Below, piece after piece: positions 23,553 to 34,881 of a stretch of 34,881 bases of DNA. Under the pieces are notes generated by a model, which searched no databases, had not been told where the DNA came from, and worked only from the letters and a program-made list of their open reading frames with translations. Source of the stretch: Macrostomum lignano (taxonomy: Eukaryota); contig NIVC01004799.1 in assembly GCA_002269645.1 (NCBI GenBank), positions 1 to 34,881 on the forward strand, read 5' to 3'. How positions within the stretch are numbered: the first letter of the stretch is position 1; the number at the start of each line of letters is the position of its first letter. The position numbers were made by a program, and so were the translations under genes.

Positions 23553-24354
23553 CTGAAGTAACTGAGGGAGAGCTGCAGTCCACACTGAAGTAACTGAGGG
23601 AGAGCTGCAGTCCACACTGAAGGAACTGAGGGAGAGCTGCAGCCCACACTGAAGGAACTGAGGGAGAGCTGCAGCCCACACTGAAGGAACTGAGGGAGAG
23701 CTGCAGCCCACACTGAGGGAACTGAGGGAGAGCTGCAGTCCACACTGAGGGAACTGAGGGAGAGCTGCAGCCCACACTGAAGGAACTGAGGGAGAGCTGC
23801 AGTCCACACTGAAGGAACTGAGGGAGAGCTGCAGTCCACACTGAAGGAACTGAGGGAGAGCTGCAGCCCACACTGAAGGAACTGAGGGAGAGCTGCAGTC
23901 CACACTGAAGGAACTGAGGGAGAGCTGCAGTCCACACTGAAGGAACTGAGGGAGAGCTGCAGCCCACACTGAAGGAACTGAGGGAGAGCTGCAGTCCACA
24001 CTCTAGGAACTGAGGGAGAGCTGCAGTCCACACTGAAGGAACTGAGGGAGAGCCGCAGTCCACACTGAAGGAACTGAGGGAGAGCCGCAGTCCACACTGA
24101 AGGAACTGAGGGAGAGCCGCAGCCCACACTGAAGGAACTGAGGGAGAGCTGCAGTCCACACTGAAGGAACTGAGGGAGAGCCGCAGTCCACACTGAAGGA
24201 ACTGAGGGAGAGCTGCAGCCCACACTGAAGGAACTGAGGGAGAGCCGCAGTCCACACTGAAGGAACTGAGGGAGAGCCGCAGTCCACACTGAAGGAACTG
24301 AGGGAGAGCTGCAGTCCACACTGAAGGAACTGAGGGAGAGCTGCAGTCCACACT
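23546..24354. repeat. 32 bp minisatellite (GTCCACACTGAAGGAACTGAGGGAGAGCTGCA), truncated by the Polinton insertion
   Basis: About 25 copies; the last unit breaks at GTCCACACT|AGTAGT. Confidence 0.95.
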
Positions 24355-24364
24355 AGTAGTATAT

Positions 24365-24602
24365 ACGATACAAAATACCCAGCAAACCATTCTCACCATT
24401 GCAAACAATTTAACCCTTTATCAGTGTGAAATGGCCTGTTTCCCTTCATTTTCGCTCGTCTTCACTTCGCTCAACTCGCTTCGCTCATCCTCGCTTCATT
24501 TCGGTCAAACAGGCCATTTCACACTTACAACGACTAATTCTTTTTGAATGGTGAGAACACGCTCTCGTCGCTCGCTTTGGTTTGCTGGGTATTTTGTATC
24601 GT
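24365..24602. repeat. Nested inverted repeats forming a terminal hairpin
   Basis: Perfect stems: 24365-24389 with 24578-24602 (25 bp), 24390-24400 with 24547-24557 (11 bp), 24423-24441 with 24507-24525 (19 bp). Confidence 0.95.
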
Positions 24603-24704
24603 CAACGCTTCCAACTCTCTCCAACACACACAAACTTTCTAGAACCCGTCGCACGCGCCGCAGGCGCGAAGGGTCTTTTTCTGTTATAAAAAATAGAACA
24701 AAAA

Positions 24705-25115
24705 ATGACACACGTTACACATGTGCAAAATATAAATGAGTATCAGGTAGGAGATCCAATTGAATACCGAGGTGAGGGACTTTTTGATTTGGTTGGAACA
24801 GCAGCAAATTTCGTTAAAGACAATATGGGGCTTATAGGGCAAGCTGGCTCTGCAGCAGGCTCTATAACCAACGCCGTAAAGGGCGGAATTGATGCAGCTA
24901 GATCAGCAGAAGAACTAAAGAAATTGAGAGAATTTAACGATACCCTCTCACAGATAAAAGCAATAAAAGATTTGAAATTAGCACAGGAAGCAACCCAAGC
25001 CGCACAACCAACAGAAACCCCCACGAAAAGCGCACCAATAAGTAATAAAGATATTCAGGATTTTAATAAAATGTTAAATACTATTAAAGGTGGAAAAGGA
25101 TTAAAGAAATTTTAA
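24705..25115 (+). CDS. Polinton small virion/core-like protein, 136 aa
   Basis: Intact ORF with AAAAATG start. RGEG-LFDLVG resembles a GxG protease site followed by an amphipathic segment. Confidence 0.75.
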   Translation: MTHVTHVQNINEYQVGDPIEYRGEGLFDLVGTAANFVKDNMGLIGQAGSAAGSITNAVKGGIDAARSAEELKKLREFNDTLSQIKAIKDLKLAQEATQAAQPTETPTKSAPISNKDIQDFNKMLNTIKGGKGLKKF

Positions 25116-25125
25116 CAATATAAAA

Positions 25126-31936: not shown

Positions 31937-31989
31937 TTTATATATAAATATTTATGTTATCGCCCCATAGGGTCGCAGCATTAGCTGAT

Positions 31990-34024
31990 TTAAGTTATTT
32001 CGGTTTGTGGCCGTTCCAAATATGCGGTCGCAGCAAAATCATATCCTGCTGATGTGCTACCACAAACGGCTGCACCACGAATAAAATGTGCGGCATCTGC
32101 TCCTCCAGTTCGAGCACCAAAACCCATAAGAGTTCCCGTTTTATCTAAATCTCCCCAAGTTCCACTATCATATGTAAAAAAGTTTTGCCCAATTAGCGTA
32201 TATGTATTAGCTGATACATTGTATGTGCTTATTTGATACCAAACTCTTTGATTTAAAATATTAATTTCAAAAAGATGCCAATCGCCGTTATCAATATTTG
32301 CATAAGTTATCGTTTGATCGGCGTCGTTAAGAACATCATTACGAACTGTTGCACCGTCTGATTTTATATTACTCCAAAGAACCCCAACTCTGTCGCGCCA
32401 TTCACTAGCAAACACAATCAAGCCGGCGCGGGTTGTTAACCCGGATCCAAATTCAGTTGTTGGACGTTCGTGACAATATGCATAAAACCAAACCGCATCA
32501 GCACCATCTCCTGTAGAATTAGCGACTCGGAAATAGAAGGAGGCGGAGATATTACGAAAATGGGTGAAATTAAATTGCAACGCTCCAGACTGACCACTTG
32601 CTTCATCAGTAATTCTAGCTCCATTTTGATAATCAATATATACAGCATCTCCAACAAAACTTCCAGTTGGAAAAATATCACCGGCTGTGGTTGGGTTTTG
32701 ATATCCAGTCCAATTGCAAATTACAGGCTCGTACAAAGCGGCATCGATTGCAGGTATTCCATCCAATTTTATTTTATCGTTAAAAGACATTCGGCCATCC
32801 GCCGTTTGTGTTACTCGCGTATCAACATAACCTTTAGTAACAACAGAACTGTTATTGTTTATAGTAGAGATATTAGTAATTGTATTACCTCCCATATCAA
32901 TTGATTGATTAACCACTCCCAAATTTAAATCAAGAATTGTAAACGTCTGTCTATAAATCTGGAAGGTTGACAGACCCGGGTTGGTTGAACCCGAGGTTGA
33001 TGTAAGACAGAACAATCTGAAATATGAATATGTTTTATCAAAATTTTGTGTGACATTAATTGTTTGAGTTGAGTTATTTATTGCTACAGAACTATCCGCA
33101 GGTATTAATACGTCCCAACTTGTATTGTCATTACTTCCTCAAATCGCCATGATGCTGGGTGCTCGTTGAAGGTGATGGCCTACCACGTAAATCAATTTAT
33201 AACACATTATTGCGGAAGGGCATTGACTTGAATCCAATAATCGGTTTGAGTATTATTTGTTGCCCAATCTGTTGAATCATTACCATCAAACGCTTTCCAA
33301 CTTGCAAAATCAGTTGTATTAAATGCAGTGCTTGCGGTTATTGCAAAACCATTTCCACTCCAATCTGCCATGGTAGGTATGTGACCAGTTTCAACCGTTT
33401 GGAATCGATCCTGCTTTAAGGCTCCACCTCCAACTAAATTATCAACCTCCGTTTTGGTATAGGAATCAGTTATATCTCTTTTTAAATTTAAGGAATTATC
33501 AACTTCAGTTTTGCTATAAGAATCAGTTATATCTCTTTTTAAATTTAGGGAATTATCAACTTCGGTTTTGGTATAGGAATCAGTTATATCTCTTTTTAAA
33601 TTTAGGAATTATCAACTTCAGTTTTGGTATAGGAATCAGTTATCTCTTTTTAAATTTAATGAATTATCAACTTCAGTTTTGGTATAAGAATCGGCCGTAT
33701 TGCGTTTTAAATTTAATGAATCATCTATTTGAGTTCGAGAATAAGAATCAGTTATATCTCTTTTTAAATTTAACCCATTGTCAACCTCTGTTTTGTATAT
33801 GAATCGGCTACGTTCCGTTTTAAATTTAGAATTATCTATTGAGTTTTGGTATAGGAATCTGCAACATTTCTTTTTAAATTTAGTTTAGTATCAACTTCAC
33901 TTTTTTTATAACCTTCATCTTCATTAATATATCGGTTATCTCCGAATGTAACACTTATTCCACCAGACGTACCACCACCAGTACTTGATGTTCCGTTCCA
34001 TGAGGGTGTTCCAGAAAATAACAT
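31990..34024 (-). pseudogene. Fibre/spike-like protein: 19-aa repeats, discoidin (F5/8 type C) domain, neck motif, L-type lectin domain; 5' half frameshifted
   Basis: ATG at 34024. About 8 YTKTEVDNSLNLKRDITDS repeats (33445-33910). Discoidin-like AITAS...WKAFDG...W...WIQV...GSNDNTSW...YSYFRL (33000-33360). MGGNTITN...VVTKGYVD. Lectin-like GQSGA...GDGADAVWF...GFGARTGG...H (32020-32640). The 3' 341 codons are open. Confidence 0.75.
33445..33910 (-). repeat. 57-nt coding tandem repeat in the fibre-like gene, ~8 units
   Basis: Eight TTTAAATTT cores spaced 54-57 nt apart. Confidence 0.9.
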
Positions 34025-34075
34025 TTTTTACTGTCTATTTTATAGAGTCTAAAATATCTTAAATACTTCGTGGTT

Positions 34076-34472
34076 TACACGAGCTTCATTCGAAAGTCGA
34101 TATAAAAAATACAACGCCGCTTGCCGCAATAACTTTTATCAAAGTTTGAAACTGTTCGTGATGATCTCCACATAAACGATTTTTAGTATGATTAAATTTG
34201 TCTTTTATTTCCTGTAACGGAGGAAGCGCGTATGAATCAAAAAAATAAACAAGTTTTGGTTTTGAATAAACTGCTGACCAATGAACACCATTTTCTTTTG
34301 TTGTTTCAATATTAACAATGAAACATCCATATCTTGGTAAGTCTTTTATCTCATCCCGCATAACACATCTGAATGGTTTTATTTTTAACTGCCGCGCCCA
34401 ATTTGTTAATTCGATATTGCTTGTTGTGTCTGTTCCATATCTTTGTTTAAAATCATCCCACGTCATGGTCAT
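34076..34472 (-). pseudogene. Adenain-type cysteine maturation protease with a 1-nt frameshift before the catalytic Cys
   Basis: IVN...GVHWSAV...YFFDSY.LPP (His, Asp). QTF-DKSYCG is restored by adding one T at 34141-34143, placing TGC at 34126-34128. Confidence 0.88.
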
Positions 34473-34691
34473 TTTATGTTCCTGAAAAACTCTTGGTTTT
34501 AGTTAGTTTCGTAGGTGTGGGTTTTAACAATTCCTTTCTTATTTATCAGTTGTAACTGCCTTAATTTTGCTAGTTCTAGTTCGTAATTATCTTCAGCTTT
34601 TTAACTTTTTCTGATTGTTTTTTTAGTAAATTATTTTTATTATTACCCATTTTACTATAGGAAACGACAAAGTCTCGAACCTTTGGTTCGG

Positions 34692-34881
34692 CTAAACCTG
34701 TTTTATACGTAAAATTATTGTTATTGACTGCCCACCAAAACTTATTAATCTATCGCTTTCATCTACAATCCTAATATAAATTGATTGAACATTATATTGA
34801 TTTAATGGGTAATATATTGGGGTTTGAGGTGAACAATCATTTTCTCTCCAATTGGAACAGCAAGAAATGGGATTGAATAAA
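34692..34881 (-). pseudogene. C-terminus of a penton/minor capsid-like protein (frameshifted, runs off the window)
   Basis: Reconstructed VPIGEKMIV.PQTPIYYPL...IYIRIVDESDRLISFGGQSITIILRIKQV* resembles the Polinton minor capsid C-terminal pattern; one frameshift and one in-frame TAA. Confidence 0.7.

Follow-up and report, generated by a model that had tools for sequence, protein, structure and literature searches.

Gene content of the locus

The analysed window, a stretch of 34,881 nucleotides, ends on its right-hand side in 10.5 kb of virus-like DNA that adjoins a host minisatellite (Table 1). The genes of this element form two converging modules, with the plus strand used on the left and mostly the minus strand on the right.

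Table 1. Features identified in and beside the element (window positions)
Feature	Position	Strand	Basis
Candidate host terminal exon, 110 aa, TAG stop	23220..23552	-	Open frame, coding-like base pattern
Host 32-bp minisatellite, 25.4 copies	23543..24354	none	Repeat measurement, anchor spacing
Predicted left TSD copy, CACACT, 6 bp	24349..24354	+	Sequence and published TSD length
Element end motif (AGT)2	24355..24360	+	Sequence; published Maverick end motif
Terminal fold-back	24365..24602	none	Folding, shuffles
ORF1, 136 aa	24705..25115	+	ORF list
ORF2, 330 aa	25126..26118	+	Adeno_PX E = 0.01, hydrophobic windows
polB, 1,196 aa	26203..29793	+	PF03175 E = 7e-18; homologs; conserved motifs
Accessory ORF	29773-30150	-	ORF list
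Accessory ORF	30134-30466	-	ORF list
Accessory ORF	30493-31005	+	ORF list
Accessory ORF	30973-31623	-	ORF list
Accessory ORF	31610-31936	-	ORF list
Fibre-like gene: 19-aa repeats, F5/8-type domain, lectin-like C-terminus	31990..34018	-	
Adenain/vUlp1 maturation protease	34049..34472	-	Homologs; fold of homolog P0123
C-terminal piece, probable minor capsid (penton) gene, 62 aa	34692..34881	-	Runs off window

The DNA polymerase gene, polB, is one open frame of 3,591 nt with no frame breaks, and the preliminary description was correct in reporting it as intact. It aligned in a single frame with four of the five homologs tested, and the alignment with the fifth was split into two overlapping HSPs that share one frame. 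The protein carries vOTU, exonuclease and palm motifs and is of the protein-primed type TP-vOTU-Exo-Palm. The putative vOTU domain, with its motifs read after PMC11161782, has catalytic residues C238 and H324 ahead of the exonuclease, which are nearly invariant in 17 aligned proteins. The M. lignano protein BOX15_Mlig030240g1 (P0001) is 98% identical over 987 aa and was placed as its sister with 100% SH-aLRT support in a quick tree; in contrast to the polB of the element it stops after 988 aa and contains an insertion of 10 aa, and it represents a different copy or allele. Its 90% cluster has 10 members, which is the sole basis for the copy number of the family. The polB proteins of Lottia gigantea share about 35-48% amino acid identity with that of the element. 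A GTDB scan with the polB alignment found 31 loci at only 22-28% identity, and a check of 10 of these for end motifs and fold-backs identified no element terminus. Searching the PDB with the polB profile gave no real match.

To the left of polB, ORF1 had no significant Pfam or PHROG match. ORF2 matched Adeno_PX at a level under the curated cut-off and has two GG-(L/I)-LP hydrophobic segments, and as a lead it probably encodes a pX-like core or membrane-active virion protein; pX-like domains are described for adintoviruses (PMC8502044). None of the five accessory ORFs to the right of polB reached the Pfam cut-off or matched a PHROG.

The repeats of the fibre-like gene matched the L-shaped tail fibre of a phage (PDB 8hqz, E = 3e-9). 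The gene also matched PHROG tail-fibre families, with two pieces corresponding to successive parts of phrog_17517, and F5_F8_type_C at E = 0.002. The lectin-like assignment of the C-terminus, which scored 0.79-0.81, is offered as a lead. This region had no relatives in phage records, and of its 21 pattern matches in GTDB genomes none held up as a relative; its single-sequence model had a pLDDT of 32.

The protease had no match in the PDB or Pfam by sequence alone, and its sequence profile found only adenovirus proteases, at E = 0.15-0.23. Of 24 candidates, 11 were homologs with 44-66% identity, and one of these (P0123, 63% identical) was modelled with a pLDDT of 87. Against the PDB, the model ranked the adenovirus proteinase first (E = 1.4e-3, with none under 1e-3), and against adintovirus and MELD proteases it gave E = 1-2e-4. 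The model of this homolog supports an adenain fold, as in the protease of Polintons/Mavericks, in a gene whose copy here is frame-broken. The best named adintovirus fold match of P0123 is the Terrapene (Beta) adenain, a weak hint as to the Alpha or Beta class.

The piece at the right edge of the window is probably the tail of a penton gene. In the ESM Atlas it fell with unnamed viral and eukaryote clusters at 0.97, and the nearest named family was PF21507 V18-19 at 0.93 (21% of members); because the recognition score is below threshold, this identity is a lead only. The 62-aa tail had no Pfam or PHROG match.

Identity of the element

With a probability of about 0.88, the right end of the window lies within an endogenous Polinton/Maverick, a dsDNA virus of the adintovirus type. 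Its family would have been active recently, and the host would be a Macrostomum-type flatworm, an assignment that depends on the polymerase match, with no flank protein matched to the species. The Polinton identity itself is well supported. The element has the polymerase, by PF03175 and its motifs, and an end motif of the (AGT)2 or (AG)3 kind, seen at the left end only. It has in common with Polintons/Mavericks (Polintoviricetes; 'adintoviruses' in PMC8502044) a pPolB with vOTU, an adenain-type protease, the (AGT)2 end, integration into animal nuclear DNA and converging modules, which are described for vertebrate Mavericks (PMC8097293); the penton and pX-like genes, both weak assignments, would be further likenesses. 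No rve integrase was found among the ORFs scanned in the 10.5 kb of the element inside the window, which also holds no double jelly-roll major capsid or packaging ATPase gene; the element continues beyond the window. According to a published survey, flatworm genomes contain many Polinton polymerases that are linked to an integrase.

The element had been labelled a Polinton-like virus, of which the Polinton part stands. PLVs mostly lack pPolB and the rve integrase (PMC11161782), and the element is therefore assigned to Polintons/Mavericks rather than PLVs; a PLV in the strict sense, with helicase/primase replication genes and no pPolB, does not fit the full pPolB. The element differs from Polintons/Mavericks in carrying a phage-like fibre with repeat, F5/8 and lectin parts, and in this it resembles PLVs, which have phage-like fibres including lectin and discoidin modules (PMC12220804).

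Host flank and site of insertion

The flank is spliced eukaryotic nuclear DNA, judging from GT donors and from an exon of NTHL1 type that matches human endonuclease III-like 1 at E = 3e-31. The insertion is probably, though not demonstrably, intronic, as the candidate exon on which this location depends had no homolog in the searches: none was found among 1.84 billion representatives, or among the 8,000 longer candidates scored, a result that the search tool itself rates as weak evidence. That the element is instead intergenic, at the array edge or within an exonic repeat is given somewhat less than even odds.

The base pattern of the candidate exon is the classic one of high G1 and low G2 (GC1 0.79, G1 0.43, G2 0.15), its GC content is 0.62 against 0.35 over the AT-rich 150 nt past its stop, and a pyrimidine-CAG acceptor adjoins it at 23553-23555; all of this favours an intron. 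An ATG start is lacking near the 5' end of the frame, and any upstream exons could not lie between the frame and the element; both points argue against the non-intronic reading. A period-3 model built from four host coding stretches chose the true frame in all four leave-one-out controls. For the candidate exon it did not choose the proposed frame, whose score of -6.4 was equalled by 163 of 1000 shuffles (the model is small). The host exon of the preliminary description has an open frame with a coding-like pattern and is not confirmed by the homology searches or the period-3 model.

On the minus strand the array unit resembles an amplified 3' splice site, with a pyrimidine tract and CAG followed by 10 nt that match the exon start. 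The array holds 24 acceptor-like CAG|TGTGG sites, and the exon frame remains open from 23968 down. The non-intronic reading arises because any of these units could be used, or because the GC-rich stretch may be no exon; it is also favoured by the missing exon homolog, the period-3 result and the array ends in the window, which are usually fractional and sharp. Eight of eight measured arrays have a fractional copy number, which in six deviates from an integer by more than 0.1 copy, and the 32-bp array is as sharply bounded on the exon side as on the element side. For the same reason the mid-unit stop of the array, which had been noted at the left junction, is no evidence of an insertion.

Frame breaks and age

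In the protease gene, two frame changes near 34155-34120 part the Cys motif from the His/Asp, and tblastn pieces lie in three frames. The fibre gene is frame-broken between about 33140 and 33890. The two genes hold at least seven lesions, which are confined to the final 1.75 kb of the window, and at least seven in 1,742 nt as against none in the 3,591-nt polB has a p of about 4e-4 if lesions are uniform. The fibre repeat intervals are 57, 57, 56, 55, 57, 56 and 54, so that the deviant ones are short in four of four cases and never long. Most likely the breaks are sequencing or consensus errors near the sequence end and not a mark of age.

It is unlikely that this is an old or defective insertion, with structural genes that have truly decayed or with a degraded right arm recombined to a young left arm. 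The lesions themselves speak for it, as does the degradation of 96% of vertebrate Maverick loci (PMC8097293), and the early end of the 98% identical sister protein, at 988 aa, shows that there are truncated copies or gene models. Neutral decay should also strike polB, however, and the lesions cluster towards the window end. The word intact in the preliminary description holds for polB and does not extend to the protease and fibre genes, and its young insertion is plausible from the intact polB and the 98% sister copy but not from the frame-broken right 1.75 kb.

The left junction

The 32-bp array has 96% matches and 0% indels, and its 26 CACACT anchors (23549-24349) are exactly 32 nt apart in 25 of 25 intervals. 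The final unit ends GTCCACACT at 24354 and is followed directly by AGTAGT, and GC drops from 0.57 to 0.37 between the adjoining 100-nt blocks. The succession of array and AGTAGT reported earlier is thereby upheld. The hexamer by itself is common, with 7 copies on the plus strand of the whole window; the chance of AGTAGT or AGAGAG starting at precisely 24355 is ~5e-4 from base composition. The precise left terminus of the element at 24355 is well supported. (AGT)2 is the commonest end motif of vertebrate Mavericks and their TSD is 6 bp (PMC8097293), with 5-8 bp given elsewhere (PMC10748475); the earlier prediction of a 6-bp duplication follows from the published length. There is no second copy of 24355-24700 within the window, and the element runs off its right edge.

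Tandem arrays are frequent mis-join points in assemblies, and with the far end lying outside the window the junction could be an assembly or library chimera of the host array with a Polinton end from elsewhere or with free viral DNA. This is very unlikely, since a join made at random would seldom hit an end motif at its very first base and the array keeps its exact spacing right up to the join. Also very unlikely is passive capture of a linear plasmid or of an integrase-less pPolB virus of the MELD type, which are known from animal datasets (PMC8502044) and would agree with the unseen integrase, as MELD viruses are described there without a detectable OTU domain whereas the element has the OTU Cys/His, the join is at an exact terminus, and there were no plasmid matches.

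For an integrated Polinton, the history of the locus may be proposed from its family. A retroviral-like integrase would have inserted the linear genome into the host array, with CACACT duplicated by the staggered cut. Upon excision, the polymerase would start at the (ACT)2 end by a jump-back mechanism, with its own terminal-protein domain as primer, the vOTU would release that domain, and the protease would mature a capsid bearing fibres on its pentons. The import of the find is modest, as the element class is widespread and the genome of this flatworm, an animal amenable to laboratory work, seems to contain many Polinton copies besides this one. The junction does permit an empty-site PCR and a splicing test across >10 kb of viral DNA.

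A terminal fold-back

The one unusual feature of the element is a fold-back just inside its left end. It has a 25-bp perfect outer stem, inner stems of 11 bp and 19 bp, and a 65-nt loop and a 20-nt bulge that are both TCGCT-rich, and it leaves the terminal 10 nt of the element unpaired. Its stability has z = -12.1 and -11.3 for the two strands, none of 100 and none of 200 shuffled sequences was as stable, and it is the strongest of 42 windows of 250 nt (-55.5 against -8 to -32 kcal/mol). Rfam gave no matches over 24300-34881. A nested MITE was set aside because the flanks of the arms show no duplication.

The protein-capped ends of Streptomyces linear replicons use fold-back palindromes. Internal palindromes occur in the TIRs of some casposons (PMC4046053). 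Both systems are prokaryotic, with unrelated recombinases and no homology shown to the element, and serve as analogies only. The passages of the Polinton and adintovirus literature consulted make no mention of a 240-nt terminal fold-back, and the papers model excision and replication priming without demonstrating them. It is doubtful, and distinctly improbable at present, that the fold-back is a functional origin and an end architecture undescribed for animal Polintons. If it were, the displaced single strand would fold into a long stem with a 10-nt 3' tail containing (ACT)2, the terminal-protein polymerase could begin the second strand from a single end, and a panhandle joining both ends, as is assumed for replication of the adenovirus kind, would be dispensable. 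Conservation across families with compensatory changes would bear on Polinton excision and replication priming. Seven TCGCT motifs lie on one strand only, all in the unpaired loops of the fold-back, and for an origin these would be putative binding sites for a viral protein.

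A precisely bounded left end

The element is bordered on its left by a 32-bp minisatellite (25.4 copies, 96% matches, 0 indels) whose 26 CACACT anchors are spaced by exactly 32 nt in 25/25 intervals. The first base departing from the repeat unit is 24355, where AGTAGT starts, and GC content changes across the join from 0.57 to 0.37. The commonest vertebrate Maverick end is 5'-(AGT)2//(ACT)2-3' (PMC8097293, in extract). The hexamer alone is not rare, as the + strand of the window has seven copies of AGTAGT; the chance of either canonical end hexamer falling at exactly base 24355 is ~5e-4. 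The precise left junction claimed in the preliminary description is therefore upheld by the position of AGTAGT, the GC step and this probability. The stop of the array in mid-unit, also offered as evidence, carries little weight because all eight arrays measured have fractional copy numbers, several with equally sharp ends, and the exon-side edge of the 32-bp array is as sharp as the element-side edge.

The element end is thus real and precisely bounded, while the intron location and the target site duplication (TSD) remain predicted. A CACACT TSD, the far copy of which would fall outside the window, is a reasonable prediction since published TSDs are 6 bp in vertebrate Mavericks, of which intact copies are 12.7-24.6 kb (PMC8097293, in extract), or 5-8 bp (PMC10748475, in extract). 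The value of the find lies chiefly in this junction, which is open to testing, and in the terminal fold-back.

Features of the element and its host flank
Feature	Position	Strand	Remarks
NTHL1/endonuclease III exons	12033-12173, 14048-14311, ~15360-15528	+	Pfam HhH-GPD, PDB match
Translated fragments	17885-18798	-	FNDTPYLQVKG...FAPSYANIFM, KRCIDDILW
Host single-exon ORF	20494-21141	-	215 aa
(TTAG)n array	21572-22383		203 copies
Candidate exon	23220-23552	-	open frame, 110 aa
32-bp array	23543-24354		
Terminal fold-back	24365-24602		nested inverted repeats
polB ORF	26203-29793	+	1,196 aa; PF03175, E = 7e-18
Accessory ORF	30973-31623	-	216 aa, hydrophobic stretch
Fibre-like gene	34018 to 31990	-	19-aa repeats, F5/8-type domain, possibly lectin-like end
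Protease ORF	from 34472	-	11 homologs

The terminal fold-back

The inverted repeats (25 nt at 100% and 24 nt at 92%) are predicted to fold so that the terminal 10 nt of the element are left unpaired. Of 42 windows of 250 nt along the element this one folds most stably, and on both strands it also surpasses shuffled sequences (z = -12.1 and -11.3; 0/100 and 0/200 as stable). TCGCT occurs seven times in the first 260 nt of the element versus twice in the other 10,267 nt, and all seven are on one strand, each in a loop or bulge. There was no Rfam match to the fold-back, and no report of a comparable structure in Polintons was found in the literature covered, including extracts of PMC4061559, PMC11296320, PMC8097293, PMC10748475, PMC4046053 and PMC3014272; it may well be on record already outside that literature, for example in the founding 2006 paper or Repbase. 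Palindromes also occur within some casposon TIRs (PMC4046053, in extract).

Gene content and affiliation

Of 7,881 candidates screened with polB residues 350-1196, 129 were homologs. Among the matches listed, the top homolog was M. lignano BOX15_Mlig030240g1 (90% cluster, 10 sequences), 98% identical across 987 residues, followed by nameless proteins of <=52% identity and then Lottia gigantea proteins. A tree made in quick search mode (29 rows: the window sequence and 28 of the 120 listed matches) grouped the window sequence and the M. lignano protein as a pair with full support. The Macrostomum homolog has an in-frame 10-aa insertion in its exonuclease region (residues ~434-445) and ends at 988 aa. 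When 17 proteins are aligned, all or nearly all of them share the vOTU-type Cys238 and His324, three exonuclease motifs and three polymerase motifs, the layout described for polintons (PMC11161782, in extract). As a full pPolB is present, the element is placed with Polintons proper, and the earlier label of Polinton-like virus (PLV) does not hold in the strict sense. Integrase, major capsid and ATPase genes were not found in the portion inside the window, beyond which the element continues. More distant polymerase relatives (L001-L031, 22-28% identity) are on short AT-rich contigs binned into bacterial/archaeal MAGs, and are probably mis-binned eukaryotic or viral DNA.

The predicted model (pLDDT 87) of a 63% identical protease homolog ranked adenovirus proteinase first in the PDB (E = 1.4e-3, no match <1e-3), and matched MELD/adintovirus proteases in a viral structure library (E = 1-2e-4). 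The fibre repeats match the L-shaped tail fibre of a phage (E = 3e-9) and 27 phage records; phage-like fibres are known in PLVs (PMC12220804), MELD viruses (PMC8502044) and oomycete Polintons, each source in extract. The final 190 nt of the window, possibly the tail of a penton gene, and ORF2, possibly a pX-type protein, are weak leads. The accessory ORF resembles the SLATT-type proteins with two helices that have been reported from PLVs and MELD viruses. Most element ORFs (24690-34660) begin in an A-rich stretch that ends in AAAATG and often follows TATA-like tracts, suggesting a common promoter or initiation signal.

Gene content, motifs, left end and fold-back potential were observed; the other steps of the mechanism are borrowed from the family. 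The integrase would insert the element into host DNA, producing a short TSD, and protein-primed replication would start by jump-back at the (ACT)2 end (PMC8097293, in extract). The vOTU may free the terminal protein, as hypothesised in PMC11161782 (in extract), the protease would drive maturation and the fibre would mediate attachment. Speculatively, the fold-back could be a one-ended origin for the second strand.

Searching text for Macrostomum together with Polinton, and together with Maverick, turned up one unrelated record each. Two assembly accessions, which we take to be M. lignano, are in a published supplementary table without species names. They occur there (PMC10748475 supplement, in extract) 350 and 156 times at two per row, giving 175 and 78 rows; the supplement has 748 integrase-linked pPolB1 genes in 8/73 flatworm genomes. 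'Macrostomum' is absent from the portion of the PMC8502044 supplement text searched.

Frame breaks and age

The protease C-terminus is split over three frames near 34155-34120 (tblastn), the fibre F5/8 domain is divided between two near 33200-33140, and the 57-nt coding repeat of the fibre gene has intervals of 57, 57, 56, 55, 57, 56 and 54. At least seven lesions are present in the last 1,742 nt versus none in 3,591 nt of polB (p ~4e-4 if uniform). Their clustering at the window end and the repeat deviations, all of which are short, suggest low-coverage read error; the rival explanation is true local decay. The proposed young insertion is plausible given the open polB and its near-identical sister, but this copy is broken as sequenced in its protease and fibre genes. 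Because polB is intact and has such a sister, the family was recently active.

The host flank

The flank is spliced nuclear DNA, as it holds an NTHL1-type exon that has GT donors and hits human endonuclease III-like 1 (E = 3e-31). The polymerase match suggests M. lignano as the host species. We put the chance that the element sits in a host intron, as first proposed, at a little better than even. The candidate exon (GC1 0.79, G1 0.43, G2 0.15) is preceded by a candidate CAG acceptor, and its stop is followed by an AT-rich tract. It scored -6.4 in a small period-3 model that picked the true frame in 4/4 controls, with 163/1000 shuffles as good. No homologs were found among 1.84 billion representatives nor, as weak evidence, among the 8,000 longer candidates scored. 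On the minus strand each array unit consists of a pyrimidine tract, CAG and the 10 nt with which the candidate exon starts, so that the array looks like a 3' splice site amplified in tandem, giving 24 acceptor-like copies (CAG|TGTGG). The insertion point is 2 bases upstream of one acceptor-like AG on this strand. From 23968 downwards the candidate-exon frame meets no stop in the array, and a single variant unit near 24000 is all that closes it.

The 215-aa host ORF has a signal-peptide-like start, a cysteine-bearing C-terminal half and no Pfam match. The translated fragments, also without a Pfam match, look like decayed reverse-transcriptase of a Penelope-type retroelement. Minisatellites fill the introns of the NTHL1/endonuclease III gene, and window positions 1-23100 hold ~15 distinct mini-/microsatellite arrays, including (TTAG)n.
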